A stretch of 59,695 nt of DNA from Rhynchobatus australiae (Eukaryota). The stretch lies in contig JAUZTB010000085.1 in the NCBI GenBank assembly GCA_034780895.1, forward strand, positions 3,248,600 to 3,308,294. Direction: 5' to 3'. Shown here in pieces: positions 3,306-48,297 of this stretch. Under the pieces are notes generated by a model, which searched no databases, was not told where the DNA came from, and was given only the letters and a program-made list of their open reading frames with translations. Every line of letters begins with the position of its first letter. Position 1 is the first letter of the stretch. Made by a program: the position numbers and the translations under genes.

Positions 3306-4332
3306 CTACGGTTTCACCAATTTTGCTATTAGATTGAAGGGATATGTCAGCCCGTTCCTCAACTCCTCCCTGAATTTTCTCTGGGTAAGGATGTAAATAC
3401 ACGTGTTGGTACAGGAGCTGAGAACTTGCAGCATAATTCCGGTTGTTTGCGTGATATAATTTGGGTCAGAATAACTATACATTCTCAGGTCGACTATTCG
3501 TCTATAAANNNNNNNNNNNNNNNNNNNNNNNNNNNNNNNNNNNNNNNNNNNNNNNNNNNNNNNNNNNNNNNNNNNNNNNNNNNNNNNNNNNNNNNNNNNN
3601 NNNNNNNNCTCAGGTCGACTATTCGTCTATAAATGTTGAAGACAACTTTTGTCGTCCATAACAATACGAAACTGCCGGTTATACTAAATAGCAAAATAAT
3701 GGATTTAATTCGATTCGCCATTTCCGTGTCTTTGTCATTCTCTCCGTCGCTCCGTCCCCGGAGTCCCCTGCGGACTTTACTAGCCGCTAAAATACGTCTG
3801 ACAGTCAGGGCATTCAGCAGCAATATCAGAACGAACGGGACGAAAGGGGTTAAAATACGATCAATCAAGTCAAATGCGACCCAAACCGGTGAGGTGAAGA
3901 AGGTTATTTTTACAACACATTCCCAGGGAACGCCATGAATAAACCGGCCTTGTCTGTACACAAAGTACCAAGGTGCAGAGAACAAACATCCCAGCGCACT
4001 CACTGTCCCGATAACCACAGCCGCTGTTTTCTCGGTGCAATATTTCGGTTTTAGTTTGTCATAGGAAATGGCTACAAATCGGTCAAAGGTGAAAGCGACA
4101 GTCAGCCACACAGAAATATTCGTGGCCGCAACAAGCAGGACGATAATGAAACTGCAGACCGGAGTGATGTGCAGGAATGAATCTGGAAAATAGAACCGAC
4201 CAGTCCGCCTCAGTAATGGATCGGTGAGGACCACCATGAGATCGGACACGGCCATGGCCACCAGGTAGCGACTGACACATTTAGAGAGGCCGCACTTTCC
4301 CCGGCACAGGATCACAATCGCCAGCAGGTTAA
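3306..4332 (-). CDS. GPR139-like: GPR139/GPR142-like class A GPCR paralog 1, exon 2 (TM1 C-half to stop)
   Basis: Acceptor CTTACAG|TTAAC at 4333/4332. Motifs AMAVSDL, TPVC, SVWLTVAFTFDRFVAI, APWYF, LTPFVPF, SSCTNTCIY; TAG at 3308-3306. The gap flanks share 25 identical bp (3484-3508 = 3609-3633); merging them gives a 902-nt exon and an intact 323-aa protein. Confidence 0.92.
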
Positions 4333-5799
4333 CTGTAAGTTCGGAGAAAAGGAAGTAGATAAATAGTCATTTGACAGAAAGACAGACTAGCAGATTGGCA
4401 GGATCTGTGGGAGGTTTCTACACTCTTTGCTGTGCTGTACAAGGAACCCTTGTCCGTTAACTACTGTTGGAACAGAGGCGAATTTCTTTGAAATTAACTT
4501 AGCAGTGAGTTATCAAGTGCTTACAGAAGGTAACTCAAGTAAGATTGCTTTCCAGACGAAGGTCCGAGAAAGGACGATAACACAGACGGGAAAGGAAGGG
4601 TCATTCAGAGAGGAATGCAAAGCGTTAAGCCCAGATTTGGTCATTACAACTATCTGTGGAAAAAAGGGTATGGGGGAGACGGAGTTTACCAGTGGGACAC
4701 TGCAGCAGAGTGTATTGCCGAACATAATTTGCAGAACCCAGTACTGCGATCGAACTAATACCTTCCACAGTTTAATGGGGGACTTCATGCGAAGACCCAC
4801 AGACGAACATAATGTATGCAATGAATTTATTCTCTGCATGCATGCAAATTTTAGTTGGAATATTAGGAGGAATATAACCATTCGTATTGAATAGTGCAGC
4901 CGTAAATGCTTGTTTGAACAGAGATTCCTACATTACATTGAAGTACAGCCTTATATATGGCAATTAACATTCAGGCTTCAAGGTGTCTAGGCATCACAAA
5001 CTCCAACAAGTGCGGAGCTACCTTGACATTGAATGGCATTAGCTCACCCTGTTCTGAAAGATCAATGTGGTGGGGGCCAACATTCTCCTGAATAGAACTA
5101 CAGCTGTCGGATAAATGTTGTTGCTGCAAGAGAAGGTTCTGGGCTTGGCAAGAGAATGACTCAGTGACACATTAACGACTGTCCACCATCAACAGGGCAC
5201 ACCTCACAGACGTGATTGAATACATTTCGGGTTACTAGTGATTGCATTTCAAACACACTGAAAAAGCTTGGAAAATGTAGCTGAGAGACAAATTGTTCAG
5301 CACTAAATCCGTTGCCTGCAACATTTTCTCTCCCATTTTCAGCGGAAACTGCCTGTAGTGAGAACGTGTTTACTCGCCCAGACCACACAACCAAGACTTC
5401 TCGCACGCCCAAGCCCTGTCACCAAGAAGGAGAATGACTTCCGAGCAAGGTTGCACCTGCCTTTTCACGCTGGGCAGTCCTGACACGGAAATACAAGCCG
5501 CCTGTCTCATTCTTGGAAATTCCTCCCAAAATTAAACGTTCCTGCCGTTCTATAACAACGGCATTAATTCATAAAAATGCGTTTCCTTTTCTTCTCAATG
5601 AATCTCAAAGATGGGGAGCAACTGTCCACTCCTCAAATGTGAATTAAAAAATAAAAATGCTGCAAAACCCTAACCATTCAGTATCTTTGAAAGGAGAAAC
5701 TGGTTACGCTTTAAATACAGATTCTTCGCTTCCAGCTCTTGACCCAAACATGTAACATCAGTTCCTCCGCGCAAGGACACATTCCGTTCCAATACCAAA

Positions 5800-6063
5800 G
5801 TTTCTTGAACAAAAAAAAAACGTACTACTAGAAGTCAGAATTGAACCTCTATAACTGAACAAAGCTTTGTGTGGAAACAGTCAACGCCAAGAAAAAAAAT
5901 ATCTGTGTATCCACGGAATTAACACTGAGTCTCACAGTTTCTTGAACAAAGAAACGTAACTACTAGAAATTGAACCGCTGTAACTGAACAGAGTTTTGTG
6001 GGAAACAGTCAAAGCCAAGAAAAAAGTAACTGTGTATCCATGGAATTAACACTGAGCCCCACC
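5800..6063. repeat. Diverged tandem duplication of a ~130-137-bp unit inside the GPCR 1 intron
   Basis: GTTTCTTGAACAAA...GGAATTAACACTGAG occurs at 5800-5936 and again at 5937-~6063. Confidence 0.88.
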
Positions 6064-6088
6064 ATTTACCTTCAAAGGAGCAACTTAC

Positions 6089-6158
6089 TGGGAACTCCAA
6101 CCGCTGAAATAGCCGGATAATAAATACGTTGGACGCGTAGAATTATCGGTGTTCCCAT
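6089..6158 (-). CDS. GPR139-like: GPR139-like paralog 1, coding exon 1 (MGTPIILRVQRIYYPAISAVGVP)
   Basis: ATG at 6158, 70 nt, donor A|GTAAGT. The phase-1 join to exon 2 gives ...GVP-I-NLLAIVIL, matching the GPR139 pattern YY...GLPANILTVIIL. Confidence 0.9.
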
Positions 6159-6234
6159 AATTGGAGGAAGCAGTGAATTCCCAACGCTCAACTTCCATAT
6201 GCACTCTGATCAACTGCTTTACAAGGGTTCCTGC

Positions 6235-6240
6235 TTTATA
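6235..6240 (-). promoter_or_regulatory. Putative TATA box of GPCR 1
   Basis: TATAAA ~80 nt upstream of the ATG; position and flanks resemble those of paralogs 2 and 3. Confidence 0.55.
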
Positions 6241-9200: not shown

Positions 9201-9349
9201 GAGATGTCGCTGCTGTATGTCACAAACAACTGATCGTGGTCCTCAATCCACAATATCACTCTTCCGCTACTATCCTCTGTCTCTATGCAAAAGCCAATTC
9301 TAAATCGAAATGACCAAGTGACAGTGGATAACACACATTATGCATCAAC

Positions 9350-10060: not shown

Positions 10061-10373
10061 AAGAACCTTGTATTTAAGAGTTAAGTTTGAATTCCTCATG
10101 TAGAGCTTTATTACCCTCTAACAAAGAGTAATACATTTTAATGAATTATTGCTTGATGCTAATGAGCTTCGTCTCTCATAATGAGTACTGCAGATGTTAC
10201 CTCAAGGCTGCAACTCCCACCAATTTCTGATTTGTATTTCCAGTGTTTCTCATTGTGCCAACAAATTATGCAATTTCAATGTCATTGATTTAAGGCTCTT
10301 GATTTGTTTTGCTTTCTATTTCTAAGCAATTGAACGTGTCATTTTGAAACTGTTATCACTTATCATTTCACAG

Positions 10374-10525
10374 AGTAAAATTAAGAAACGTTCCTGGGTC
10401 CTACACGAATGTGTGGAAAGAGTGCCTGAAAATGTTGATGCAGCCAGAGAGTTGCTTCAATATGGACTGAAAGGCACTGACCTGGAGGCACTTATTGCTA
10501 TAGGAAAAAGAGAAGATAGAGGCAG
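10374..10525 (+). CDS. NBAS: Single internal exon of NBAS (neuroblastoma-amplified sequence, NRZ tethering complex subunit)
   Basis: CACAG|AGT...GGCAG|GTTTGT, 152 nt, encoding SKIKKRSWVLHECVERVPENVDAARELLQYGLKGTDLEALIAIGKREDRG(R), near-identical to the vertebrate NBAS segment as I recall it. Confidence 0.9.
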
Positions 10526-10707
10526 GTTTGTCAGTTCATTTTTAGAACTGTATAACTTTCTCCTTCCTCTTCCCCACCCATATGTGTTGCGCAACCTTTT
10601 ATTATCTNNNNNNNNNNNNNNNNNNNNNNNNNNNNNNNNNNNNNNNNNNNNNNNNNNNNNNNNNNNNNNNNNNNNNNNNNNNNNNNNNNNNNNNNNNNNN
10701 NNNNNNN

Positions 10708-12649: not shown

Positions 12650-13625
12650 AGAAATTATTGGCAATTCGTTTATGACTGAAACGTGTACTGAGATACGTGG
12701 GGGGGGGGGGGGCCTTTGCTTTGCATGTCATCCATACAGATCATTTCACAACGTAAGNNNNNNNNNNNNNNNNNNNNNNNNNNNNNNNNNNNNNNNNNNN
12801 NNNNNNNNNNNNNNNNNNNNNNNNNNNNNNNNNNNNNNNNNNNNNNNNNNNNNNNNNAGAAATTATTGGTAATACGTTTATGACTGAAACGTGTACTGAG
12901 ATACGTGGGGGGGGGGCGGGGTACTTTGCTTTGCATGTCATCCATACAGACCATTTCACAACGTAAGTACTTCGCGGTAGTACAAAGGGAAAACAATAAC
13001 ATGATGCAGAATATAGTGCCACAGTTACATAGGAAATGCAGTGCAAATAGACATTAAGGTTGAAGGGCCATGACGATATAAGTTGTGAGGTCAAGGGTTC
13101 ATCATTAACGTATAAGTGCTCCTTTCAATGGTCGTTAAAAGACGGATGGAAACGGTACTGGAGTCTGGTGGTATGTGTCTTCAAGACTTTGTATTTTCTG
13201 CCCGATTGCAGGGGGCAGAAGAGAAAATATTAAGGGTAGGAAGGCTCTTTGATGATATTGGCTGCTTCTCTGAGGCAGCGAGAAGTGTAGATATAGCCCA
13301 TGGAGGGGAGGTTAGTTTTTGTGATGTACGAATCTGCACCCACAACTTTCTGCCAATTATTGTGGTCTTGGGCAGTACAGTTGTCATACCAAGCTGTGAT
13401 GCCTCCGGATAGGATGCTTTCTATGGCACATCGAGAAAACATGGTGAGGGTCAGCAGGAACGTAGAGGCAGTAGAGTCAGTAGAGGCGCTGGCGCGCTTT
13501 TTTGAGGGATTGGCGTCTTCGAGGTTGAACCAGTACAAGCTATTGGTGATGTTAAACAGATATAAACATGAAGCTCTCAACCATCATCAGCTCCGACAAT
13601 CAATGCTAAAATATTCTATATGTAT
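12650..13625 (-). mobile_element. Rex1/Babar-type LINE 3' fragment (start duplicated across the gap)
   Basis: ORF 13230-13580: RCAIESILSGGITAWYDNCTAQD...YTSRCLREAANIIK, the typical RT C-terminal extension. Confidence 0.75.
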
Positions 13626-16561: not shown

Positions 16562-17466
16562 CTATCGTTGAACTATCTTAACAATTGCATTCAGTGGGTA
16601 TTTCGTCGCGTTCATCAACTCTTCTCTGAATCTATTCTGCGTCAGGACATAAATGCACGTGTTAGTGCAGGAACTGAGGACTTGCAGCATAAAGGCTACT
16701 TGTTGTGTGATGTAATTGGGGTCTGAATAAGAGTAATAAACTTGAATGTTTGCAATCCGTCGATAAACGTTGAAGAAAACTTTTGTCGTCCACAACAATA
16801 CGAAACTTCCCGATATACTGAAGAGTAAAACAATGGATTTCCTTCGGTTCTCCATCTCCGGGTCCTTGCCATTTTCTCCAATGCTGCGTTCCCGGAGTCC
16901 TTTGCGAACTCTACTAGCCATTAAGATGCATTTGACTGTCAGAGCATTGAACACCATAATCAGAAAGAACGGGATAAAAGGTGTTAAAATCCGGTCCATC
17001 ATGTCAAATGCGGCCCAAGCTCGTGAAGTGTAGAAGCTTAGTTTTGGAAGGCAGCCCCAGGGAATATCACCAATGAAGTACAGTGGTTTATAAATAAAAT
17101 ACCAGGGAGCAGACACCAAACAACTCAGCACACTCACTGTCCCGATAACCACATTCGCCGTTCTCTCGGTGCAATACTTTGTTTTCAGCTTCTCACAACA
17201 AATAGCTACAAATCGATCGAATGTGAAAGCGACGGTCAGCCAGACAGAACTCGTCGTTCCTGTCGAGAGCAGCGCGACAGCGAAACTGCAGACGGGAGTC
17301 ATGCGCAGGAATGAGTCCGAAAAGTAAATCCGACCAATCCACCTCAGTAAAGGGTCAGTGACAACGACCAAGAAATCGGCCGCCGCCATGGCCAGCATAT
17401 AGCGAATGATACACTTGGAGAGACCGCACTTTCCACGGGACAGGATTATAATCGCTACCAAGTTAG
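16562..17466 (-). CDS. GPR139-like: GPR139/GPR142-like class A GPCR paralog 2, exon 2
   Basis: Acceptor CCCTTGTAG|CTAAC; uninterrupted 905-nt exon with AMAAADFL, TPVC, AFTFDRFVAIC, PWGC, LTPFIPF and SSCTNTCIY; 324 aa together with exon 1. Confidence 0.95.
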
Positions 17467-20090: not shown

Positions 20091-21459
20091 TGTGACGAGG
20101 TGGCTTATATTGGTCGATCCATTATATCTCTTTAGCAAAATTCCGAACAACATTACCAATCCCTACAAGTACATCGGAATACAACCTCTTTACCAACACC
20201 AATCACCATTGAACCATACAGACAGACATCATAGAAACAGGCACTTCAACCCACACAGTCGCCTCGACCATCAACCACCAATTTCACGCTAAGCACTTGA
20301 ATCCCAGGTTCTACCAATAACCGGCATACGTGGAAATATACAACAGCGAATTAACCTATCAATCTCACGTCTTTATGATGTTGCAGGGAACCAAAGCATA
20401 TGCGNNNNNNNNNNNNNNNNNNNNNNNNNNNNNNNNNNNNNNNNNNNNNNNNNNNNNNNNNNNNNNNNNNNNNNNNNNNNNNNNNNNNNNNNNNNNNNNN
20501 NNNNACGTGGAAATATACAACAGCGAATTAACCTATCAATCTCACGTCTTTATGATGTTGCAGGGAACCAAAGCATATGCGTGAAGCCCATGCGGTGGCA
20601 GAGAAAGCGTGCAAAGTGCACGCAAACAGCACCCGAGGTCAGAATCGAACGAGGCTGTTTGGCGCTCGGGGGGGGGGAGGGGCGAGGATCTGCTGGCTGC
20701 CATTGTGCCGTCTCTGCAGCCGTCGGTTGAAGTCAGCCTCAGGAAAGAAGCAGTAAAATGTTCGAGAGAGGACTTTCAATTGGACATGCTGCATTTCTGC
20801 CCCTTCATGTCAGGCGCTACTCTTTGTATGTTGCCTTCTGAAGCTCCCCTTTAAAAATCCCCGTGACCGAATCCCTGCGTTGTCAGTAAGTCTGCAGGGA
20901 CAGAATAAGAATGGACCAGGTTTGTCCTCGGAGTATATTCCCAGGGCGCTGGAAACATTACTTACTAATACGGGAGATTATGGTTAGAATATCATTCCAA
21001 AATTGTATGTTATTTTCATTGGTACAGGACGAATCCAGTTTAATAACAACAATCGTTCACTCCTATTATCACTAATACTGCTTAATTCAGGCAACATCCG
21101 GTGAATCTCCTCTACATGCTCTGCAAAGGGTGTCAGATAAGTTGCATATCCTTGAGATCTTTGTCTTTCCACCATTTTATTTGCACCAGCGTTAATGCTG
21201 CTGAGGTAATAATTGTTGATTTTCAACTGTCATTGAAGAAGCACTGATCAGTGCGTAACGGTGCCAGCGGCGTCTTATTCGCCATACTAAACCCGAATTC
21301 CTATGCTGGGTCCTCTCGAGTACGTGCCGGTCCAAACAATTTCAGAGCAACAAAGTTCATGTTTCTCTGTGTAATTGGACACCCTGTTATCACGTTGATG
21401 GAAGGTATTTTTCACAGCTGTTGAAATTCCCAACTCTGCGGAAAATAAGTTGCATTTTG

Positions 21460-22215
21460 AACGGTCAAATGTTAGAGGAAAGTAAATGGCAGAACCCTTC
21501 GGAGCTTTGATGTACAGGGGAATCTTGGGGTTCAGGACCATAACCATGAAAGTAGGAACACTGGTAGATGGAGTGATAAAGAAGGCCTGTGGCATACTTG
21601 CTATCATCTATCGGGGTGCTGAATATAAATGTAGGCAAGACATCTTCAGCTTCATAAGGATTTGGTGGGGCAAACTTTGGCGCGCAGTTCTGGTCGCCGC
21701 GTTGCACGACGAATGTGGTGGCTTTTTACATTTTGCAGAAGAGGTTCACCAGGATGTTGCTAGATTAAAGAGTATTAGCTATGGGGAGAGGTTGGACAGA
21801 CTAGGTTTGTTTTCTCTGGACTCTGGCAGGCTGAAGGGGCACTTGATACAATCTTATACAAATTGGAGATACATAGATCAGGTTTATAGTAAGAATCTTT
21901 TTCTCAGGGTGGAAACATCAAATGCCAGAAGGCAGAGGTTTAAGGTGAGTAGGGACAAGGTAACTGAGATTTAGGAAACAAGTGTTTTCCACATAGAGTA
22001 GCGGCCGTCTGGAATGCTTTGCCAGGAGGGGAAGAGTGGGTTATCTGCTGGAAGCGCGATATGATAGAAATGTTTAAGAGGCATTTGGAGAGGCATATGA
22101 AGAGCCAGGGCATAGATGGATACGGACTTTTTACCAGAAGGTGGAATTCGTTAATCTGGCATCATAGTCGGTGCAGAAATGTCTGTTCCTGTAGTAAATT
22201 GTTCGATGTCGTATG
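21460..22215 (+). mobile_element. CR1 3' fragment
   Basis: ORF 21486: VIKKACGILAII, SYGERLDRLGLFSL...RLKGHLI. Confidence 0.82.
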
Positions 22216-23068: not shown

Positions 23069-23138
23069 CCGGAACACCAAGGGCTACAATAACAGGATAA
23101 TAAATCCGTTCAATGCACATGATGATTGGGCATCCCAT
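23069..23138 (-). CDS. GPR139-like: GPR139-like paralog 2, coding exon 1 (MGCPIIMCIERIYYPVIVALGVP)
   Basis: ATG at 23138, 70 nt, donor G|GTAAGT, phase 1 matching exon 2 (GVP-A-NLVAIIIL); same length as paralog 1 exon 1; intron 17467-23068. Confidence 0.9.
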
Positions 23139-23208: not shown

Positions 23209-23214
23209 TTTATA
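23209..23214 (-). promoter_or_regulatory. Putative TATA box of GPCR 2
   Basis: TATAAA ~75 nt upstream of the ATG. The plus-strand context AGTGAATTC..ACTCTGA..CAAGG.TTCC....TTTATA is shared with paralog 1. Confidence 0.55.
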
Positions 23215-25077
23215 GTTTGATCGGTCTCGGCTGATACGATTGTACCACTGGTCGTAACTTCAAAAACAAGTTAAACCATGTTAACACGTGTTATTTCAGG
23301 TTCATTAGCTGCGGAGAAAACAATGTGCTTTTTTTTAAGTATCTCCGGGAACTGTTAACGATGCAGTAACCGATCTCTCGGGAGTAATTGATAACCGTAA
23401 TTGTACAGGACTTATATAACGATTGTCAACGGGATCCTTTACAACGATTGTGTAATATCTTAACTACGATTTCTACTGCTGAATTATCGACAGACGACAA
23501 CGATTCATTTACAGCAGTCACTTAACAGGGACAAATCCCTGTCAATCTACGCATCAAATTTGCAGATCACCAACAACTTTCCCTCCAGGGATTCCTAGAG
23601 AATTTGCCCCTTAGCATTTTAGGTGGGATAAATTAAGGGACGGACACGGTGCATGTCCTGTTCATGTTCCTTTTTCGATTATTATAATCAAACTCTCGTG
23701 ATGTCAACTCTCAGCGCCTGACCAACAAGTGCGGCGAGGGTTGTGGTCATGGTTGGGGCGGGAGGAGTGGTGATGGGTTTATTGGAGTACATATTGCGTA
23801 TAAGGCTGAGCAAGTTATGACGCAGCTGCATACAACCCTGGTGAGGGAAAATTCCAACTATTCTTCTCAGTTCTCGTCGCCACATCAACAGAAAGGATGT
23901 GATTGCTTTGGAGATGATGCAGAAGAAATTGACCGAACTTTTGCCTAGAGTAGATAGTACCAGCTATAAGGGGAGCTTGGGCAAACTTGGATTGCTTTCT
24001 TTGTGACGCTGGAGGTTGAGAGGTGACCTGATATAACTTTATACACGCATTAGAAACACAGAAAGGAGTCAGTCCTTTTTCCTTGGGAAGTAATGAAAAA
24101 TATTAGAGGGAATGTTAAGGGGGAAGGAGGAAGTTTAAAGGCATGCAGGGTCTAGAACTGAGGCGTCGGATATTCCTCTGTCTCCACAGATGATAAATGA
24201 CCGTTCTTCCAGCAGCTTGTTTTTGTTTCATACTTTGGTTTTGTATTTGTTTGGTTTTCCAGCGCGCGCAGTGTTTCACGCAAAACAACGATGTTTTCGT
24301 TCTAATCTGTCTTCATTGGCTTTTTTTCGTTCGGGTCGAATTACATCTCTGCACATGAACTGAAATTAACAAATCATCACACTCTTTGGCATCCCGTTCT
24401 CCCTCCGCCTGGATCATCTGCTTTGGTCTCCACCTGTCACGGTCTTTCCATTCGATGTCTGCCCCACTGTCTTTCCCTGAACACTTAAACCCTCATTTCT
24501 CGTCTAGGAGAGGAAGCTACACTTTGAGGATTTCATAATTTTCTCCGTTCGTTGATATCCTGGTCATGCCTATCGTACAACGGAGTTTTTTTTCGGTAAC
24601 GAAAGAAACTGGAAAAACGAACTGTTCCTGATAAATTTCTAAAAGGTCCAATGCTGTTCAAGTTCCAAAATAATACAGTTAAAGGTTACTTGAGTAACAG
24701 TTTTTGTATTATCTGTTCTAGTTACGTATATCCATTTCCCAACGCTGGGGATCTCTGGAGAAAAATGAGATTTGGTGACTCCTCTCGCACTCAGCCACAC
24801 GTTGGTGAATATCGTCTGAAAAGGCATAGAGCAGAGAACTCCGCGGGTCAGGGGGAATTTCTATGTAATTCAACATTAGTATTTCGCAGATGATGTACGA
24901 ATATCTGGGGTCAATAGTTTACCTGATCACTGGAGAATTGTTTTCAATTTTCTATTGTTCAGCTGATGCTTGGGTATNNNNNNNNNNNNNNNNNNNNNNN
25001 NNNNNNNNNNNNNNNNNNNNNNNNNNNNNNNNNNNNNNNNNNNNNNNNNNNNNNNNNNNNNNNNNNNNNNNNNNNNN

Positions 25078-25144
25078 AACACCGTCATGACGTTCTTTAA
25101 CTTCTGTTTACTTAAACACGCCACACACACACACACACACACAC

Positions 25145-25182
<38 letters not shown>

Positions 25183-25222
25183 TATTAAAGGAACCTCACT
25201 AATTGTAACCTAGTCCGTAACA
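25078..25222 (-). mobile_element. Terminus of a (TG)n-containing LTR, same family as 34213-35069
   Basis: (CA)n-TATATTAAAGG...GTAACCTAGTCCGTAACA is the reverse complement of the start of the 34213 element. Confidence 0.8.
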
Positions 25223-27450
25223 ATGATAATTGACCGTTCTTCCAGCAGCTTGTTTTTTGCTTCATATTTTGTTTTTGTTTTGTTTTGGGTTTTCCAGCGC
25301 CACAGTGTTTCTCGCAAGTACAACGATGCTTTCGTTTCTACATGTCTTCATTGACTTTCTTTCGTTCGGGTCAATTCACATCTCCTTTACACATCAACTG
25401 AAATTAACAAACCTTCACACTCTTTGACACCGGCTCTCCCGCCACCGAGATCATCTGCCTTGGTCTCCACCGATCACGGTCTTTCCATTCGATGTCTGCC
25501 CCACTGCCCATTTCCTGAAACCTTAAACCTTCATTTCTAACATTTCTCGTGTCAGACAGAAAGGTTCAATCTACAGACTTTGTGAATTTCCATAATTTTC
25601 CGAGATCATTGATATGCTCGTCTTGCCCATGGTGCAACGAAGTTATTTCAGGTAACGAAGGAAACAGAAAAAAGATCTGCTCGTGATTGATTTCCAAAAG
25701 GTCCATTTCTGTTCAAGTATTAAAATAATACCGTGAAAGGTTACTTGAGTATCAATTTTTGGATTATCAGTTCTAGTAACGTATATCCAATTCCCAAAGC
25801 TTGGGATCTCTGGAGGAAAATGAGATTTTGTGGCTCCTCTCGCATTCAGCCGCACGTTGGTGAATATCGTCTGAAGAGGCATAGAGCAGAGAACACCAGC
25901 AGTCGCGGGGATCCCGACGCAATTCCACTTTTCGCAATTTCTACGCAATTTCGCAGTTAATGTATGAATATCTGGGGTCAATAGTTTACCTGAACACCGA
26001 AGACTTGTTTTCTATTTTCTATTGTTCAACTGCTTCGGTACACCCGGAAGGCTCACAAAATTATATTTTGCAAGGAAAATTTCAGAGGATTACATTGCTT
26101 TGGTAAATGGGAACCCATATCTTCAATTCATTTGCTGAACTATTTTTATTTCTAGTGGTGGAATGTTTAAGGTTATCTGTAACAACTACCTGTCACCGTA
26201 CCGCGCTCTCTACCTCGCTGATCCTCCCAAAATTTGTGATCAAATGTCATCAACCAACACGTTTAGTGAATATAGCAACATGATGGGATTATAAAGCAAG
26301 GAGTCAAGCCTTTCGGCACATAATTAACGTGCTAGACGTAAATACATATCCACACTTATCAAATTTCCCATAATTCAACCTGAGGTTCGGCATGCCACGT
26401 CATTGCATCTGTTAATCTAAACACTTCCTTCATGTTTTGAGACCGCCGCTTTCCACAACACCGTCAGTCAGTAAGGTCCTGATTTCAGATGGGCAGTGGG
26501 TGAATAAATCTCGGCAAATCCGCTGTAAAATATCCATTTCTTCCTTGAAATCGACTCCCTCCAGCGATAAACACCCTTACACTGGCTGTTCCTAGTTTTG
26601 TATGAATCGCCTTCTGAGTTGCCAAAAATTGTGCCATGTCAGGTAACATCCCGGCGAATCTTCTCCGCAACCTCTCCAGTGCAATCATATCGTTGTTCGA
26701 GTGGAGCGGCCAGAAATAGACAAGGCATTTCAGTTCCGATCAATCCAGTGTTTCATGTGTTTGTACCATGACCTCCATGGTCTTGTTTAATGTCAATGAA
26801 GGAAAATATCCCCCATGAGTTCTTCTCCCCATTACCCGCCCTTTCAGCTGCTTGCATGGATCGGTCACAGGCACACCAAGACCTCTCATTTCCCAGTTTC
26901 CTGTGGTCCTACCATTCCTGCTTCACATTCTCGGCCCTGTCCACGTGACCCTTCATTTTGGAAAAAAACTCTGTCATACCTTTGTCTACGGAAATCATCT
27001 GTATTTCTGCCATCTTACCAAATTATCAACGTTACCCTGCAGCAGAATTATTAACATACACAAGACACAATTCTTCGGGGCAGCTGCGAAGTTGCTAATC
27101 ATGCCACAGATGTTAATATCTCGACTGCTATTATCAATGAAAAACAGTGACTGCCTTAACCTGGACCTTTCCTGCGCACCCGACACTTTTTTGCGGACTT
27201 TCAATCGCCAGAGCACCCCTTAACCACCAGTCGGAGCTCCATATCTCCAAGCCAATTTCGGGTCCAATGAATCAAATTACCTTGGACGCATGGCCACTTA
27301 CGTTTTTGACCAGAGTCCCATGTCAGACTCCTTGTTATCATCTTAATGAAAGAAACTGTACTCATCGAGACATTCATCCACTTAATCAGGATTTCTCATG
27401 AAATCAGTCGGAAGGACATACTTCTACAAAGCTTTGCTGACTATCCATTA
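25223..27450 (+). repeat. Diverged duplicate (copy B) of 24190-24977 plus 27628-~29015 (copy A)
   Basis: Colinear matches throughout, e.g. TGACCGTTCTTCCAGCAGCTTG, CACGTTGGTGAATATCGTCTGAA, GAGCTCCATATCTCCAAGCCAATTTCGGGTCCA, with many substitutions and indels; includes an old minus-strand CR1. Confidence 0.9.
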
Positions 27451-29859
27451 NNNNNNNNNNNNNNNNNNNNNNNNNNNNNNNNNNNNNNNNNNNNNNNNNN
27501 NNNNNNNNNNNNNNNNNNNNNNNNNNNNNNNNNNNNNNNNNNNNNNNNNNATATCTGGGGTCAATAGTTTACCTGATCACTGGAGAATTGTTTTCAATTT
27601 TCTATTGTTCAGCTGATGCTTGGGTATGCCCGGAAGGATCACAAATTTGTATTTGCAAGGGAAGTTTCAGAGGAGTTCATTGCTTTGGTAAATAGAAAAC
27701 CATAACTTAAATTCATTTGCTGATCTATTTTTATTTCGAGTAGTGGAACCCGCGCGTTAATGTGTAAGGTTATCAGTAACGACGACCAGTCGCCGTACCG
27801 CGCTCTCTATCTCGCTTGTCTTTCCCAAAATAGGTGATCAAAGGTCATCAACCAATACGGTTAGTGGATATAACAATATCATGGAATCATAAAGCAAGGA
27901 GACAAGCCCTTCGGTCCATAATTAACGTGCTGGACGGAAAATACATATCTACAATAATAATTTTCCAAATAATTAACCTGTAGTTTCGCATGTCATGCCA
28001 TTGCATCTGCTAATCTAAATACTCCTTTAATGTTTTGAGACCGCCGATTTCCACAGCACCGTCAGTCAATAAGATCCTGATTTCAGATAGGCAGTGGGTA
28101 AATAAACCTCAGCAAATCCGCTGTAAAATTTCCATTTTTTTTCCTTTAAGTATACTCCCTCCAGCGTTAGGCACCCTCGCACTGGCTGATCCTAATTTTG
28201 TATGACTCACCTTCTGAGTTCCTTAAAATCGTGTCATGGGAAGTAACATCCCGGCAAATATTTCCCGCAACCTCCCTAGTGCAATCATGTCGTTTTTGGA
28301 GTGATGCGGCCAGAAATGGACAAGGCATTTCAGTTCCGATCAATCCAGCGTTTCATGTGTTTGTACCATGAACTCCATGTTCTTCTGTTTAATGTCAATG
28401 AAGTTAAGTGTCCCCCATGCGTTCCTCGCCCCATTATCTGTCTTTGCAGCTGCTTGCACGGATCGGTCACACGCACACCGAGATCTCTTCATTTCCTAAT
28501 TTCCTGTGGTCTACCATTCCTACTTCACATCCTCGGCCTTGCCCACGTGACACTTCCCTTGTCTGCAGAAATCGTCTGCATTTCTGCCATCTTACCAACT
28601 CATCAACGTCACCCTGTCGCAGAATTATTAACATACACAAGACACAATTCTTCGAGACAGCTGCGAAGTTGCTAATCATGCCATAGATGTTGACATCTCG
28701 ACCGTTATTATCAATGAAAATCAGTGTCGGCCTTAGCCTAGGCCTTTTCTACGCACCCGACGCTGTTTTACGGGCTTTCTATCACCTTGACCACCATTCC
28801 GAGCTCCATATCTCCAAGCCAATTTCGGGTCCAGTTAATCAAATCGCCTTGGGTACACTGGGCCCTTACGGGTTATTTTTTTTGACCAGAGTCCCATGTG
28901 AGATTTATTGTTATCATCTTAATGAAATAAACATCGACATACACATTCGCTTCATCGGGAAATCTAGTGAAATTAGTCTGAAGGATACCCCTTCTACAAA
29001 GCTTTGATGACCATCCATGATCAGTCCCTAACTCGTCAAGTGCAGATTAATCGTGTCCCAAAGAATTTATCCAGAAAAAATTCCAACGTCTAATATTGGA
29101 CTCACAGGCCGATTTGAGCTGGCTCATCACATCGTCACTTTTGGAACGGATACCCCATTCATTATATTTCATTTACCTAACACTTCTTTGCCTCGTGAAG
29201 ATGTAGAACCTTCCTGCCGGGTCCAAGTAAATGTTTCCCTTCCCTTCCACATCAGACTCAGACGCCTCTCATTAGGCCCCGGGGACTTACGTACCTTTGC
29301 TATTCTCTATCTACTGTGTAAATTTATCCCAGAATTCCATCGCTCCCCTCCTTGAATTTTACAAATGCAATACGTTCTTTTATCAAGAAGGGGCATGGAA
29401 AGCATTCATTTCGGTCGTCAGTTACTTCGTCCAGCTTCCTATATTGCCTATTTATTCCCCAATGGACGTCAAATGCTCCTTTCTGTCTTCCGTACAACTC
29501 AGTGGAGTTCCCTTAGTCTTGCCGTCAGTGTGCCCACATATAGCCCAAATATTTAGTACCCCAGAAGTGCCAGAGGGTATGGAGCCTTAGACCATAGCGA
29601 GAGGGGCTTCTGCCCAATTCCAAGGTGGGCATTACTTTCCTTTCTCCAACCCACAAATTCCCAAAATATCCAGTGTTCTTTGGATGAGTTGACCCCACGC
29701 TTCGCCATTGCCGAACACATTGGCTTCGAAATCTCACTGCTTCATTCATGAATGAGAAATGAAGAGAACGATTATCAGCCAATTTATGGAAGATGACAGA
29801 CACTTCCGAATCAAACAGCGGTTAAAGCCCGGAGGGTAACCATTTGGTGAAACCTCTTG

Positions 29860-30790
29860 GAGTCAGAGAGTTATGCATCCGGAAATAGGCTCTTCCGTCC
29901 AACTCACCCGTGCCGAACGAAGTGCCTTCATGGACCTGTCCATTTGCCTGCTTTGGCACATATCTTTGTAACTATACTATCTTCGTACTGGTCCAAGAGT
30001 CTTTAAACGTGATTGCAGTGATTGTACTAGTCCGTGCCACTTCATTTAGCAGCTCGTTCCAACACATATGCCATAGCCGGTTTAAAACCTTTGCCCCGCA
30101 GGCCCCCTTTAAACCTTCCCTTTCTCAGTTTAATCCTTGTTTTATACACTCCCATCCCGGGGAAACTACTGTCCTAATCCGCCTTACCTATGCCTATCAT
30201 GGTTTTATACAACTCTCTAAACTGACCCCTCTGCTTCCTTCATGACAGGGAAAACAAGTCTCAGACTATCCAGTCCCTGTGCATAATTAAGACTCTCCAG
30301 TCGCGAAAATGCCCTTGTGAATCTTTTTTGCATCCTTTTAAGCTGAATCATATCCTCCTGCAGTCTGGCCTCAGGGACTGTATTCAATACTCCAGGTGCG
30401 GTCTCACCAACGTCATGTACTGCTGTAACATGACCTGCCAACTCGTGTACTCGATGCGCCGTCCAATGAAGTAAAGCGTGCAAAGAGCCTACTTCCCGAC
30501 ATTGTCTGCCTGTGTCGCGAAATTCAGGGAAGTGTGTGCTTATCCCCAGAGGTATCCCTGGAGTACAACATTCCCCAGTCCAGAACTGTTTTAATCTCCC
30601 ACAATTCATCAATGCCAACATGTCCGAGTTAAATTCCACCTGCCATCCCTTTGCCCCCTTTTCCAGTTGATGTAGATCTTGTAACCTCAGAAAACAATCT
30701 TCACTGTCCGCCACACCACTATGTTTGGTGTCATCCGCCAACCCACTAAATACGTCACTTCCACTGTCATACAAATAAGTCCATGCCAAC
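29860..30790 (-). mobile_element. CR1 ORF2 3' fragment
   Basis: ORF 30217-30792: LADDTKHSGVADSEDCFLRLQ, WQVEFNSD, LKRMQKRFTR. Confidence 0.82.
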
Positions 30791-33700
30791 ATTCATTCCG
30801 GAACACACCTCCCCTCAGTCGCATTTGCCTGCACGCTGCAAAATTTGGACAACGTGCACGCAAAGTTTAACGAATAATAATAAACATACGCGCCACATAA
30901 ATGACAAGCAATGGGCATCTCCAACAAGAAACAGCTGAACTACCTACTTTGGTACATAATGTGATCACCGTCTTCGAGTCCGCTGGCATCAACATCCTAT
31001 CGGTTACCAATAACCTGTAGCTCAGCTGCATCTGCCCCATGAATACTCTCACGGTCAGAGAATAGGTGTCCTGCGGCGAGTTTGTCGCTTCCTGCCAGGC
31101 ACAGATTATGTATAATCGACGAGGCGAAACGCTGGATCGTGATGGAATAGTGTCCCTTTGTGTGGTTAAGTGCAGCTTCCATAACACTCAAGAAACTCTA
31201 CATATTCGAAGCCAAAGCAAAAAGTAAATGCCGAATACACACGGCGGGACCATCAGCAGCAATGGAACGAGAAACAGGAGAACCTCTTGTCATAACTGAG
31301 AAATAGAGATAAAATCGTAATTGTCGGTGGCCGAGAAGGTGATGACGGAAATGGATATGAGTAAGGAAATAAATGTGATATGGCAAGGCCGAAGGCCAAA
31401 CAAGACCCGGCAGATGTTGGATAATGGAGCAACAAACAGTCTGACGGGAGGAACTCAACGGTTCCAGCAGCATCTCTGAGGATAAATGAATTGTTCTCTT
31501 TTCATTGCCCGTGTTGTGTAGCTAACAGCAAGACCACGAGACAGGTCCATCTGGCCACGCTTTCATAAAGCAGAGCTACTCTTTTTCATCACATCCTCAG
31601 CAGCTTTCAGTAGGTCAAAGATGCCTGTCCTCTCGTCACATGGACCTCTCGTGGGCAGCAAGATTACGTGAAGCCTTTTACCGTGCAGCCGAAATTCCCT
31701 CATCAGGTGCGCGAGACGATGTCTCGTGGCTTACACTGAAATTGCTGTTCTGGTCGAAGACCTCAACAAAATATAATGTTGAAAGTCAAAAGACAAAGCC
31801 TGAATCGGAAATGAAATTGGTTTATAATTCTCACATCGAGATACAGTGAAAAAAAACTTTGCTTCTTTGCCCTCCCTCCAGGGAGATCATTTCACACTTC
31901 AGTGCATTCAGGCAGTAAAGAGCAAAACGGACTGTAGAATATAGTTTAACGGTTACATATAAAGTGCAGTGCAGGTCTACAAATAAAGTCTAACAGCCAC
32001 AACGGAATAGACTGGGAGCTAAACAGTCAGTCTTTTTTTACTTTTTAGGAGTCTGACATAGCTGTCCTGGAGCCTGATGGTATGTGCTCTGAAGCCTTTG
32101 TATATTGTGTTCTATGGGAGTGGTTGGGGAGAAGAGAATATGATAACGTGCAGGCAAAGTTTAACGAATAATAATAAATCAAGGCCCCACATAAGTGATA
32201 GACAATGGGCATCTCCAACAAGAAACAATAGAACTCCCAACCTGTGTTATATAATATGATCACCATGTTCGAGTCCGCTAGCATCAGTTGCACAGCAAGA
32301 TTAACCCTTTGCATACTATATTTTTAATCTGTTAAAATAGATAAGATAATTTATTTTATCTCAAGGAACATAAACAGTTTAAACAATCCGATTAAGTGCA
32401 AGTGGATATTTAAAGTTTTACACAGATTGAATGCTCAGATCATTTTTGGCCAAGAAACACATATCAGGAGGGAAGATAATCAACTTTTTTTTAGATTTTG
32501 AAGGGGTCCACAGTTTCCTTAAAATTCACAAGCAAAGATGAAAGGAGTTTCTATTTTTATAGACTCTTCAATTTAGTTTGTTCATTTTGGGACAATATCA
32601 GAGCTAAATGGTACATTTGTATTAATTACAGGAAGTCCCCATCTTCCGAACGCCCGACTTACTGGTTTACTTCATAATAAAAAAAAGTTGTTATGGTTGA
32701 TGTTTATGCAGCCAATGTAGATCACCCTGAATTTTTTAAACATTTGTTTACATTCTTTCCTACCTTTAATGAATACACTTTAATTATGGGTGGAGATTTT
32801 AATTGATGTTTAAACCCTTCGATGGATAGATCTGTATGAAATCCTGCACTTCCAAACAAATCCGTTGACTTTATTAATTCCTTATTATTTGAATCCGGAA
32901 CTTTAGATGTTTGGAGATATCTACACCCAAATCATAAATAATTATCACTATTTTTTTCTCAGGTCTGCCCTAATTACTCGAGGATTGATTGTTTTTTTAT
33001 TGATGCCAGACGAGATCCAGTTATTATGGACTGTGAATACGATGCAAATGCAATTTCTGGTCATGCTTCATGGAAATTATCAATTAAGTTAGCAGATGTC
33101 TCCTTTGGTGTCAGACAATGGCGATTTAAAACTTCTCTATTACCGACTTAGATTTTGTCCAATTTATTAAAGAACAGATTTCAGTTTTTTTATTTTTAAC
33201 TAATTTTACTGAATAAATCTCCAGTGGGTTAATACTTTTAAAGCTTATATCCGTTGTCAAATTAGTTCATTTTCCGCTGGATTGAAAAAGCGAACTAGTA
33301 ATTAAATACGTATATTAGCTTATGAGGTTAAAGAAATCGACAAAAATATTTTAATACTCAATCTGGAGCTTTATAAAAAGAGAACAGAACTCCAACTACA
33401 ACATAGTTTATGATTAACATCTTCAATTGAAAAATTACTACTTAAAATTAGAACTCAATTTTATATACATCCTGACAAATCTGGTAAATTATTAGCCAAC
33501 CAATTGAAAGCCACTTTATCTAAACGTCAGATAAACAAAATTGGTAAATAAGATTGAACCTAAACGACAGATCATGTTCCAATTAATAACTCCTTTCATG
33601 AATGTTATACTTCTTTATACCAGTCAGAATCCCCTGACCATTCTACATTAATGCACGAATTTCTAAGAGATTTGAATATTCCCCGATTATCTTTAAATGA

Positions 33701-34212: not shown

Positions 34213-34253
34213 TGTTACAGACTAGGTTACTATTGGTGAATCTCCATTTAATA

Positions 34254-34309
<56 letters not shown>

Positions 34310-35723: not shown

Positions 35724-35796
<73 letters not shown>

Positions 35797-38370: not shown

Positions 38371-39515
38371 CATTGCCTTCAGCAGCGTGAACTCCGCCCC
38401 ACATCCTGAAGCTAATGGTCAATTGACATTTTAAACATTCACATGTTATTATTGTATATTCAATATCTTTCTTCGCATAGTTGCCTTTCTACGTATTTGG
38501 AAGCACTCCGTCTCATTCACCAACATATTATACAAGCAATCACGTGCGAGATACATACCGTCCATTCTACTCTATTACTATTGGAGCCCTTGTCTCGCTG
38601 TCGCATTGTAAATTGCAGCGCTCAGTTGAATCACATTCTCCTCATCTGCTTAGCTTCATTGCCGACCCATACTCCCAATATGTTTCTTACCTGAAGTCTA
38701 TCCATCCTAAGTCGCCATGATTCCGATTCAAGTGTACAGTTGACCCATAATCTCCGTCTGTATAGTCGGTAGAACATGATCATTCCAAGTTTTTTTTCAA
38801 CCTGCTCCCTAACTTTCTGTTGGAGGATTTCTTGTGCCCGCTTCTAATCACCAGAAGAAACGTGTTTCTATCATTTTACGTGTGTCGGTAACGTTGACCG
38901 ATCTTCAGAGAAATATCCGCAGACCGTGATTCAAAAGCAAAAAAAAATCTGAGGTAAATCTAAAATAAATTCTCAAGGTAATGAACGTATGGTCTTGGGA
39001 ACGGTAAAACTCAGTAAAGGAAGGGTGTCTGCGATAACAAAGCTGCCAAACTGCAACAAATCAAATCAAATCGAGAAGAAGGAACGCAATGTGTTTATTC
39101 CATCGGCAATGTTGAGTGCTGAGTGATGAACCAGAGAAAATTTTGGAAAGTGAGCCTGCTTACATCATGCCTTACATCATGCTTACATCATCGGAAAGTG
39201 TGACATGCAAATACTGGTGGTGATATGAGGGGAATTTTGCAGGTGTCCTTTTGTTCGAGGCAGTAGCACTTTCATTCCAAAAGTCTTTGTCTAAAACTCT
39301 CGTGATTAACTGCAGCATCGACCTTCATTTCAGGAATTTCATTGCTTCACTGCTCAGTATTTACCAACAAGCAGATCTTCTTGGTTACATCTTTTCCAAT
39401 ATATGTGTTGCACAATACTTTTCACAGGGACAGCACATGTCGTCATCTTCCGCACATAGTGTCTCATATAAATGAGGTCATGGAACTTGCAATGTCTCGG
39501 GAGTTTTTAGCTCTG

Positions 39516-39521
39516 TATAAA
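39516..39521 (+). promoter_or_regulatory. Putative TATA box of GPCR 3
   Basis: TATAAACCAGAGCTCCCTT ~95 nt upstream of the ATG resembles paralog 1 TATAAAGCAGGAACCCTT. Confidence 0.5.
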
Positions 39522-39614
39522 CCAGAGCTCCCTTCAGTGTTACGCCCAACAGCGAATGAACGTCCCGGTTTGCACGAATAGATGCGACAGCTTCGGTAGC
39601 AGGTCACACGGAAA

Positions 39615-39690
39615 ATGGACCAAGTATTTAAAGCTGTTCGTCTGACAGAATCCATTTACTACACAATCCTGGGTGTGTTTGGAGTTGTAG
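39615..39690 (+). CDS. GPR139-like: GPR139-like paralog 3, coding exon 1 (MDQVFKAVRLTESIYYTILGVFGVV)
   Basis: AAAATGG start, 76 nt, donor G|GTAAGT, phase 1 matching the acceptor at 47396/47397; IYY...GV motif; no assembly gap between the two exons. Confidence 0.85.
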
Positions 39691-41699: not shown

Positions 41700-43855
41700 A
41701 ATATAAATCACGAGTGAGGATCAATTTCAGCCATTCTGACTTGGTAGAGGATAGTGCGGCAGCCCAAACGATGGGGTGTGGTTGATCAACATAGCTCATC
41801 ATTCAGAGTAGGTTCTTAAGATCGGCATTGAAAGAAAGGGTGGGATATGTATGAAAAATAAAGGGATGTGGAAGAGTCAGATTTAACATGTAGAGAAGCT
41901 TTGAAGAAGGCGAAGCAGAGTGCAGGACATAAAAATAGAAAGGTGCATGGGCTAAGGTACATTTACTTGAATGCAATAAGTATAAGGAATACGGGTGAGG
42001 AACTGAGAGCTTGGAAAAGTACATGGGGCTATGATATTGTGGCCCTTGCGGAGACTTGGCTGACAGCAGAGCAGGAATGGATATTGAATATTCCTGGATT
42101 TCAATGTTTTAAAGGAATGGTGGGGGGGGGAATTGGATGAGGGGTGGCGTTTTTGTCAGGTATACTATTACATCTGAAGAAAGGGTGGATAATGCAGAAG
42201 GGTACTCTCTAGAGTCATTGTGGTTGGTAGTTAGGAACAAGAAAAGAGCAGTTACTCTACTGGGACTATTCTATCGGTTCACTCCCACCCCCACCTCCCC
42301 ACCGGTAGCTGCAGGGATACTGAGGAGCAGATTGGGAGACAGATTTTGGAAAGGTGCAAGAATAACAGGGTTGTCACCGTGGGAGACTTCAACTTCCCCG
42401 ATATTGTTTGGCACCTGCTTAGTTCCAAAGGTTTCGACGAGGCAGAGTTGGTTAAATGTGTCTAGTACGGATTCATGTCACCGTATGTTGACAGACCGTC
42501 AAGAGGGAATGTCATATTTGATCTAGTATTAGTTAATGAACTGTGTCAGTTGACAGATCTCTCGGTGGGTGAGCATTTGGAGCACAGTGACCACCATTCT
42601 ATAACCTTTAGCATTGTCATGTACAAGGAAAGGAGCAAAGATGACAGGAAGATATTTATTTGGGGAAGGACAAATTATGAGGCTATAACGCTAGAACTTG
42701 AGAGTGTAAATTGGAATGATATCTTTTTAAGGGAAATGCACTATGCAGATGTGAACGTTGTTCGGGAATCTTTTGCAGGATGTTAGGGATAAATTTGTCC
42801 CGGTGAGGCAGTGAAAGAATGGCAGGGTGAAGGAACCATACCTGACAAAAGAAGTGGAACATCTAGTTAGGAGGGCGAAGACAGCATACATATGGTAATA
42901 GCTGCAAGGATCTGACAGGGCTCATGAGGAATATAGGGTAGCAAGGGAGGAATTTAACAAGGGGCTTACGAGAGCAATAAGGGGACATGAACAGTCCTCA
43001 GCGAATATGGTTAAGGCAAATCCCAAAGTTGTTTACACGTACGTGGAGAGCAGAAGGATGACGGGAGTAAAGGAAAGACCTATTTGACATAAAGGTGGGA
43101 AGATGTGCCTGAAAACTGTTGAAGTGGGTGAGGTTCTCAATTAATACTTCTGTTTCGTATTCACCAAGGGGCGGGACCTTGATGACGCTGAAGGAAGTGT
43201 TAGTCATTTTAAAGTTCTGGAGTATGTAGCTATCAAGAGACAGGATTTGTAGGAACTGTTAGAAAATATTAGAACAGATAAGTCCCCGGGGCCTGAAGGA
43301 GTATTTCCCAGGCTGCTTCCTGAGGTGATGGAGGAGATTGATGAACCATTGGCAAGGTTCTTTGAGTCCTCGTTGCCGATGGGAATGGTACCGGAGGATT
43401 GGAAGGTGGCAAATGTTGTCGCCTTATTCAAAAGATGTAGTAGAGATACTCCAGGGAATTCCCCACCTGTGAGCCATACGTCTCTGATGTGCAAGCTGTT
43501 GGAAAGGATTCTTCATGGACAATCATGGCCTGATTATGGACAGCCAGCATGGATTTTTGAAGGGAAGATCATGTCTCACAAGCCTGATAGGTTTCTTGGA
43601 GGAGGTGAATTGGGCCAGGAAGATTGATGAGGGTAGTGCAGTAGATGTGGTCTACATGGATTTTAGTAAGGCGTTTGACAAGGTTACACATGGCAGGCTT
43701 CTTCAGAAGGTCAGAGAGATTGTTATATAAGCACAAGGAGAAATTTAAGATAGAGGGATATGTTGGAGGAAGGAGTTAGATAGTCTTAGTTTGAAGGGCG
43801 GTACAACATGGTGGGACGAAGGGCCTGTATTGTGCTGTATTGTTCTGTGGTTCCA
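41700..43855 (+). mobile_element. CR1 LINE (end of ORF1, ORF2 endonuclease and N-half of RT) joined directly to the 3' end by an internal deletion; lies in the GPCR 3 intron
   Basis: YLNAISIRN, YDIVALAETWL, KSPGPEGVFPRLL, SQHGFLKGRSCLTSLI, VDVVYMDFSKAFDKV, then the CR1 3' UTR GAAGGGCCTGTATTGTGCTGTATTGTTCT. Confidence 0.9.
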
Positions 43856-46800: not shown

Positions 46801-47396
46801 GGTTCAGTTCTCTTCAATAGCTCTGATCTGCATTCCATGGCCCATTGTGTGTCCCTGTGCGAATCTTTTATGTTGTCAAACTGTCCACATGAAACTATCA
46901 ACCAGACGGTTTCTCCATCAGCGTATCACCACGGCAATCCCGACCTTACCCTACCAGAATTATTCCCTTTTACCATTTCTCTCTCCTGCGACCCTATGTG
47001 CAACTACACCTAACTTAATTTGTAATTTTATCCAGTGCGGGTGAGGGTTTTCGACCAAAAACGTTCATATCCTTTCTCCTTCAACAGATGCAGATAGTTT
47101 GATCTTTCCCACAATTTATTCATCACTGTTCTCTCCACACACAAAAAAACTTTGCAGGGATATCACTTTTCACATTCCATATTTCTGGTACTAGTCTGGA
47201 GGAGAATTTTTGTCAGATTCGCAAGAAAACATAAATAGCATGCCTTCTCACTGCCAAGAATCAGGGAAGTTCCCGTGACTCAAAAGAGATGCACTTCGTC
47301 ACAGGATGCAACCACTAGTCTCTGATTTGTGCATCCACCGTACTGGATACGATCATTTCGATAGGGTTCTGAGTTGTGATATATTTTCTCTTGCAG

Positions 47397-48297
47397 TAAA
47401 CGTGATGGCGATTGTGATCCTGTCCCGAGGAAGGTGCGGTCTCTCCACGTGCATCACCCGCTACATGGTGGCAATGGCAGCTGCCGATCTCCTCGTCCTC
47501 GTCACAGAGATGGTGTGTTGGCGCCTGGCAGACATCTTCTTCCCAAGTTCTTTCCTCTTCATGACCCCTGTTTGTGCTCTGAATATCGTCTTGGTTTTTG
47601 CAACTACGCTCGTGTCTGTATGGCTCACCGTCGCTTTCACATGTGATCGATTCGTGGCCATCTGTTTTCAAAAGCTGAAAACAAAATATTGCACACAGAG
47701 AACGGCGGCCGTGGTGATCACAGTCGTGATCGTTCTGAGCGCCCTCAAATGTGCCCCCTGGTACTTCACTTATGAACCGCAGCAGACCATTGGATCAGTG
47801 CCTTGGGGCTACGCGCGTAAACAAAGCTTTATATGTCCATGAACTGGGCAGCATTTGAGTTAAGTTTCTACATAGTTACACCGTGTGCCCCTTTCATTTT
47901 TATCTTGCTGTTCAATGTTCTCACCGCCAGGCACATTTTAGTGGCCAGCAGAGTTCGAAAAAGGCTCCGGAACCGAGGCAGTGGGGAAAATCTCGAAGAT
48001 CCAGAAACGGAGAACAGAAGGAAGTCTGTCGTTTTACTCTTCAGTATTTCTGGTAGCTTCGTTCTGCTGTGGATGACAGAAATTGTATTTTACACATATC
48101 AACGAATCACAAACACCTACGGTTACTCGACCAACGACCGCCTAGATATCGCAGAGAGGACCGGGGTGATGCTGCAGCTTCTCAGTTCCTGCACGAACAC
48201 GTGCATTTATGTCGTCACCCAGGCTAAATTCAGGGAGGAGCTGAAGAGAGCGGTGAAACAACCGGTCAGGTTATTTTCTAAATTAATACATCGTTAA
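47397..48297 (+). pseudogene. GPR139-like: GPR139-like paralog 3, exon 2; frameshifted, probable pseudogene
   Basis: Acceptor TTTTCTCTTGCAG|TAAAC. Split over ORFs 47306-47842 and 47833-48297; one T is missing at 47828-47831 (AGC TTT [T]AT ATG). ECL2 reads PWGY where the paralogs have PWGC/PWEC. Confidence 0.85.

Follow-up and report, generated by a model that had tools for sequence, protein, structure and literature searches.

A large, clustered class A receptor family of sharks and rays, filed mostly under GPR139, as a candidate chemosensory repertoire

GPR139, a receptor of the brain, is assigned to the MIP/proctolin/FMRFamide receptor group (PMC12208981), and its pocket for Trp and Phe consists of F3x33, H5x43, W6x48, R6x51 and N7x38 (PMC5430874). 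The srw genes of nematodes are described as a chemoreceptor family closest to peptide receptors (PMC3963977). In cartilaginous fishes the known olfactory families together hold 43.8 complete genes on average, with a range of 20-62 (PMC10869828), V2R families hold 8-43 genes (PMC10116579), and G-protein-coupled receptors (GPCRs) are said to be relatively scarce (PMC8455134). The subject here is a stretch of 59,695 nucleotides from the ray Rhynchobatus australiae (contig JAUZTB010000085.1 of assembly GCA_034780895.1, positions 3,248,600 to 3,308,294), called the window below, which carries three two-exon receptor genes designated P1, P2 and P3. These genes are members of a clustered class A GPCR family that evolves by birth and death and has at least 638 motif loci in the genome.

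No description of the family was found in the literature searched, which includes PMC12294341, PMC11979771, PMC10620051, PMC8455134 and PMC10869828, each as far as its text was open, while most subscription papers lie outside that scope. The genes are already in public annotation under a misleading name. The existence of the family, a birth-and-death repertoire of a known kind, is well demonstrated.

A receptor family apart from GPR139 and GPR142

Searching the genome with exon 2 of P2 gives 3812 first-look candidates, and all 131 that were scored match at E = 1.1e-90 or better with 48-74% identity, the self match aside. Exact matches to degenerate motifs number 638 for transmembrane segment 3 (TM3), 391 for TM7 and 335 for intracellular loop 1 (ICL1), with 0 matches for each of the reversed-pattern controls. 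Taking the first 100 places per motif, and the range common to them, the TM3 motif recaptured 28 of 49 TM7 matches, 24 of 36 protein matches and 34 of 64 ICL1 matches, which by capture-recapture yields 957-1396 loci, fragments and some gap duplicates included. Our sample of loci is the first 100 of the 638 TM3 places, scaffold C17 contributing 49. Of these 100 copies of exon 2, 45 are open, 15 are broken and 40 are interrupted by N gaps, which leaves 45 open among 60 gap-free copies and suggests several hundred intact family genes in the genome. An acceptor was located in 81 of the sampled loci and exon 1 in 74, with a few exons 1 common to neighboring loci.

The loci are unevenly placed. On ten large scaffolds, 56 of 95 loci are less than 2 Mb from an end and 89 of 95 are in the outer 15%, counts that refer to loci that are not independent and to scaffold ends that need not be telomeres. 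Neighbors closer than 5 kb make up 9 pairs among the 100 loci, probable gap duplicates included, and many matches of the P2 search are on small contigs. The sequence-only reading of the window had proposed a clustered, diverging and partly pseudogenized family, and this is borne out by hundreds of copies of which 15 of the 60 gap-free sampled ones are broken; rather than a few copies pairing as 1:1 orthologs with known receptors, there are more than 600 motif loci, and the family members put into the tree form a clade of their own. Assembly redundancy was considered as the source of the count and rejected, the 46 open copies (45 sampled loci plus P2) having pairwise identities of 39-83% with a median of 50%.

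Three other observations concern the count and its context. Matches to the Pfam family 7tm_4 in the same genome number 20 from 92 candidates, and no more than 2 of these matches are both strong and full-length. In run X1, the summed contig depth over the ICL1 motif is about a thousandfold that of unique parts, which is no measure of copy number and was not used. Five loci (L072, L074, L076, L084 and L102) make up a subfamily with a longer exon 1, of 37-48 codons, and a different promoter layout.

Database searches return 2199 clusters for P2 and 2444 for a deep-branching member, and every named one among the best 120 of each comes from a shark or a ray. Most of these carry the label 'probable G-protein coupled receptor 139', just as had been anticipated for automated annotation. 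Neither chimaeras nor bony vertebrates are among the best 120 of each search, and since those 120 are what was viewed, absence beyond sharks and rays is not shown. To ask how these proteins are placed among class A receptors, a tree was computed with 55 rows (57 were given and two outgroup OR rows were dropped), 36 of them from the family and none from invertebrates. All family rows fall together in a single clade (100/99), set off by a long stem, outside the clade of GPR139 plus GPR142 (100/97), and the two clades are joined as sisters at only 91/67, with a long-branch warning. Within the family, the partner of P2 is a Mobula protein and that of P1 a Pristis protein, and proteins from sharks are nested inside the P1/P2/P3 clade, so the subfamilies predate the split of sharks and rays.

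The ray has a true GPR139 besides. The GPR139 motif has one locus in the genome, at C127:20.78 Mb (L009 819-1775, minus strand), on another scaffold than the window, and identity is 100% between its exon 2 and a protein of Hypanus sabinus; the ortholog is 93% identical to Mustelus, 88% to birds and 87% to human GPR139. Family members are 20-26% identical to GPR139 and 17-23% to GPR142. The proposal that the family is distinct from the conserved ortholog therefore holds, with GPR139 in single copy on C127 and the family as a separate clade. A relationship of some kind may be read from the PDB profile search, in which the best match of the family is GPR139 (E = 4.5e-20, the next being 3e-12), and from the first intron: in P1, P2 and P3 it is a phase-1 GT-AG intron with its acceptor two bases before the N1.50 codon, and an acceptor at this position recurs in 81 of 100 family loci as well as in GPR139 of the ray. 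The top 50 of Foldseek do not list GPR139 and return peptide-type class A receptors without discrimination.

Of the GPR139 pocket residues, the 46 members keep F3.33 in 3 cases, W6.48 in 40, R6.51 in 0 and N7.39 in 9, with F, W, R and N together in 0/46; the H of the GPR139 pocket is present at the aligned column in 12/46. C3.25 and a cysteine in extracellular loop 2 (ECL2) are present in 45/46 members, while C3.25 is in none of 8 GPR139/142 sequences. No N-glycosylation site is found in 58 exon-1 peptides of the family. In sum, the family is like GPR139 and GPR142 in its best solved-structure match by sequence, its phase-1 intron in TM1, the weak sister grouping and the frequent W6.48; it differs in having hundreds of copies against one, and in a C3.25/ECL2 cysteine pair that is missing from GPR139 and GPR142. 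Direct GPR139 orthology was rejected as an identity for these genes in view of the separate clade, the low identity, the single-copy ortholog elsewhere and the missing pocket set.

Beyond the vertebrate receptors, the nearest Atlas clusters after those of the family itself are FMRFamide-receptor-like and Srw-bearing, and GPR139 proteins carry PF10324 Srw matches. The ray family and nematode srw may be alike in lying near the peptide-receptor stock, but the ray family belongs to the vertebrate lineage and is an independent expansion.

Pocket variation and promoters

The same 46 open exon-2 sequences were used for measures of selection. With Ballesteros-Weinstein numbering set from anchor positions, mean entropy is 2.10 bits over 29 pocket positions versus 1.18 over 149 other TM positions (p=1.7e-7); the cytoplasmic side has 0.97 and the extracellular loops have 2.27. 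Among 19 disjoint closest pairs, with synonymous divergence (dS) near 1, the ratio of nonsynonymous to synonymous rates (dN/dS) is 0.19 overall, 0.19 in the pocket (95% range 0.14-0.26), 0.30 in the loops and 0.13 inside. High entropy together with low dN/dS means that pockets differ between subfamilies and are held within them, a pattern that fits stable, subfamily-specific ligands and bears no sign of an arms race.

Upstream of the genes, 61 distinct regions were compared. A TATA box is placed 50-100 nt before the ATG, with 27 exact matches in that range and no more than 2 in any bin elsewhere. Farther upstream, 125-175 nt before the ATG, there is a forkhead-like site. De novo search gives the motif YTAATTG-TCYC-NNY-GGAGA about 15-30 nt upstream of the TATA box, with an information of 10.3 versus 6.0 for shuffled and 6.7 for upstream sequence, and it cross-validates between clusters with p=5.5e-5 and 4.4e-9. 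An O/E-like 10-mer is in 37/61 promoters versus 31/244 control windows, and the strict O/E consensus is in 0/61. The homeodomain, O/E and forkhead assignments are matches to consensus sequences and denote predicted sites. ETS sites (31/61 promoters versus 37/58 introns), RUNX sites (13 versus 14) and NF-kB-type sites (3 versus 2) have no enrichment. The family motif is similar to the composite Lhx2/Ebf site in enhancers of mouse OR genes (PMC5608512; PMC7804114, PMC11643329). A shared regulatory programme is the safe reading of these predicted sites; that the promoters may be active in olfactory neurons is a reasonable guess.

For comparison, 14 first exons of class C GPCRs (V2R/OlfC-type, CaSR-like and others) were located by one motif, and in several of them a TATA box lies close to the ATG, with the family element missing.

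Candidate roles of the family

The main point of interest is what so many receptors are for. We lean, by a little, toward an external chemosensory receptor repertoire of sharks and rays, a reading drawn from genomic features. The likeness to the vertebrate OR, TAAR, V1R/ORA, V2R/OlfC and T2R families takes in size, clustering, pseudogenes, old subfamilies, a short N-terminus, a variable pocket with a conserved cytoplasmic face, and a putative promoter element of homeodomain plus O/E-like type; the differences are that the ray family has PF00001 only (as judged from P2), has two coding exons and stands apart from other class A receptors in the tree. Olfactory neurons in particular are a tentative choice of site. 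Equally tentative is the strongest form of the proposal, in which a fifth olfactory family of independent origin, comprising several hundred intact genes of the GPR139/peptide-receptor lineage and expressed one per neuron from an OR-like promoter with homeodomain and O/E elements, would provide sharks and rays with most of their sense of smell.

As a chemosensory system, the family would work as follows. Each receptor would combine the conserved G-protein face common to the family with a subfamily-specific pocket for its own set of external molecules, and would be transcribed from its compact promoter in one specialized cell type. One or a few genes would be active per sensory cell, most likely a microvillous olfactory neuron and possibly a taste or solitary chemosensory cell. 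Signaling would presumably run through Gq/Go, phospholipase C (PLC) and TRPC2, since GPR139 couples to Gq and shark olfactory neurons have Go and TRPC2. Small peptides or amino-acid derivatives would be likelier ligands than free Trp or Phe, because the ECL2 hairpin is disulfide-tied and the GPR139 pocket residues are lost.

The shark nose may have space for such receptors. In the catshark all olfactory neurons are apparently Go+/TRPC2+, and they form an almost continuous monolayer, in which only 5.94 per mm are labeled for the V2R co-receptor (PMC10116579). So few co-receptor cells in a near-continuous layer leave, we infer, room for further receptors not yet known. Cartilaginous fishes have large noses and many neurons for few known receptor genes, and the family makes this long-standing paradox of shark olfaction directly testable with tissue RNA-seq and in situ probes. 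If it is sensory, a chemoreceptor repertoire has arisen independently once more among vertebrates, and if the fifth-family proposal is true, the view that sharks and rays have the smallest olfactory repertoire among vertebrates would be overturned. Whatever the tissue, a hidden family about twenty times the known shark and ray olfactory repertoire changes the GPCR count.

A number of points weigh against a sensory, and especially an olfactory, role. EBF factors act in B cells and other neurons too, and paralogs have promoters in common by descent. P1 and P2 themselves match the promoter element weakly. The class C promoters, taken as a positive control, failed: the family motif reaches a score of >=8 in 1/14 class C exon-1 promoters, as compared with 41/59 in the family and 12/59 upstream controls. 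By the strict pattern, the homeodomain-to-O/E spacing is 0 bp in 5/61 or 2 bp in 7/61 and never 1 bp, which is the spacing of the mouse Lhx2/Ebf composite probe (PMC5608512). Positive selection in the pocket was not found between close paralogs (dN/dS 0.19, 19 pairs). The amino-acid ligands proposed earlier by analogy with GPR139 are unsupported, with R6.51 and the four-residue set both at 0/46. Expression evidence of any kind was not found, and no RNA run is listed with P2, which is neutral either way. Among ten Logan-only family proteins there is no spliced transcript, and the exon-1 peptide is in 0/10; six open with what is apparently read-through of the intron, and the other four have their start within exon 2. 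In a catshark 'brain & olfactory epithelium' library, the top 50 genes include no GPCR (PMC11979771), a weak negative because the library mixes olfactory epithelium and brain. In the olfactory neurons of the catshark, OR genes went undetected despite the family they belong to (PMC10116579), so that the tissue does not follow from the gene family alone.

The alternative that survives best, although we consider it unlikely, is internal sensing, in which the receptors would respond to microbial or tissue peptides and metabolites on leukocytes, mast-like cells or gut and gill epithelium. The formyl-peptide and MRGPR families of mammals provide the analogy. A peptide-receptor-like fold with a disulfide-tied ECL2 hairpin suits such a role, an EBF-like site fits the B lineage as forkhead and homeodomain sites fit endoderm, and the V2R-type promoters are without the family element; set against this are the ETS, RUNX and NF-kB-type sites, which are not above introns, and the pocket dN/dS of 0.19, in which an arms-race signal was not found. 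To our knowledge, innate GPCR families are also all smaller than about a thousand copies.

Less probable still is a neuronal but not external role, in which the brain, sensory ganglia or the gonad would have a diversified set of receptors for neuropeptides or for identity. Many neurons make use of EBF and LIM-homeodomain sites, which would agree with it, but receptors for endogenous ligands are usually few and conserved. True GPR139 is of that kind, being single-copy and 87% identical to human, whereas the family ranges over 39-83% internally and turns over; in favor of the neuronal role is GPR139 as closest solved relative (E = 4.5e-20), a receptor of the brain in the MIP/proctolin/FMRFamide group (PMC12208981). 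Passive subtelomeric duplication or assembly redundancy with most copies idle, to which the 56/95 loci within 2 Mb of a scaffold end, the 9 pairs under 5 kb and the many matches on small contigs might have pointed, is highly improbable and largely refuted by the median identity of 50% and maximum of 83%, the dN/dS of 0.19, the 45/60 open gap-free copies, the promoter elements kept across clusters and the subfamilies shared with sharks.

The window genes and their surroundings

A six-frame scan and tblastn find three class A GPCR exons in the window and no fourth. The three genes have the one architecture that the sequence-only reading gave them, with two exons, a first coding exon of 70-76 nt ending in a phase-1 GT donor and the intron described above. 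Their positions are collected in the table.

Receptor gene features of the window (positions count from its first nucleotide)
Feature	Position	Strand	Description
P1 exon 1	6089..6158	-	70 nt with ATG; codes for short N-terminus and first half of TM1; phase-1 GT donor
P1 exon 2	3306..4332	-	TM1-TM7 and stop; 100-N gap inside
P1 TATA box	6235..6240	-	82 nt upstream of ATG
P2 exon 1	23069..23138	-	70 nt
P2 exon 2	16562..17466	-	open; complete receptor of 324 aa
P2 TATA box	23209..23214	-	76 nt upstream of ATG
P3 exon 1	39615..39690	+	76 nt
P3 promoter	39488..39521	+	O/E-like element ~39488-39507 (moderate match to family element); TATA box 39516-39521
P3 exon 2	47397..48297	+	1-nt deletion behind 47827, in ECL2

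Over TM1-TM4, P1 and P2 agree at 88/124 positions (71%) and P3 agrees with the other two at 74/124 and 79/124, so that a hand count of about 70%, with P3 more distant, is upheld by the recount. The closest database protein to P2, among the matches listed, is from Mobula birostris with 83% identity. P2 has PF00001 as its only Pfam match and is not matched by 7tm_4, and the AlphaFold model of its exon 2, with a predicted local distance difference test (pLDDT) of 83.8, shows seven helices in a bundle and a hairpin in ECL2.

The genes had been described as two intact and one disrupted, which stands for P2 and, as a real frameshift, for P3, with qualifications for P1 and P3. In P1 exon 2 the 100 N at 3509-3608 are flanked by a repeat of 25 nt, and counting the flank once gives an open frame of 323 aa. 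A bridging contig was not found in run X1, and with the gap unbridged there P1 is probably, by its frame, intact across it. The P3 lesion is a single missing T. Run X1 has two contigs with equal ends over 47746-47857: the first (depth 16.6) is identical to the window, and the second (depth 14.2) has the T and differs in 4 other letters. In runs from other organisms the T is present in X2 and X7, and X9 shows none (2/3). Since X1 carries both forms and X2 and X7 carry the T, the lesion is not a simple assembly error; a null allele accompanied by either an intact allele or a near-identical copy is probable, and the lesion appears to segregate.

The window is on scaffold C85, of 3.93 Mb in an assembly of 2.23 Gb. 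P1 stands at the edge of its cluster as the first member: no family gene lies within 70 kb to one side of it, and the 130 kb to the other side contain seven longer copies and two fragments. At 10326-10523 on the plus strand there is an exon-like frame with a GT donor at its end, single-copy in the assembly, which may be an NBAS exon, a name not confirmed by Pfam, Atlas or PDB. If it truly is one, P1 and P2 lie antisense within or beside NBAS.

Scaffold gaps of 100 N with repeated flanks (up to 77 nt identical) are at 3484-3633, 12650-12967, 20328-20581 and 24901-27627. They are negative-gap assembly artifacts, and many family genes elsewhere are split in the same way. Two tandemly duplicated segments of about 81% identity (24190-24965 versus 25223-26032, and 25968-27448 versus 27551-29018) are probably decayed repeat elements. 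Decayed frames resembling long interspersed elements (LINEs), presumably of CR1 type, are at 1660-2412, 21486-21971, 30220-30792 and 42113-43624, and the two that were tested have no Pfam match. A broken retrovirus-like pol in several frames occupies 51096-53726 on the minus strand, with Pfam matches to RNase H (E = 4.2e-6) and the integrase core (E = 6.8e-9), and arrays of a 52-bp tandem repeat are found at 1-179 and 528-630.

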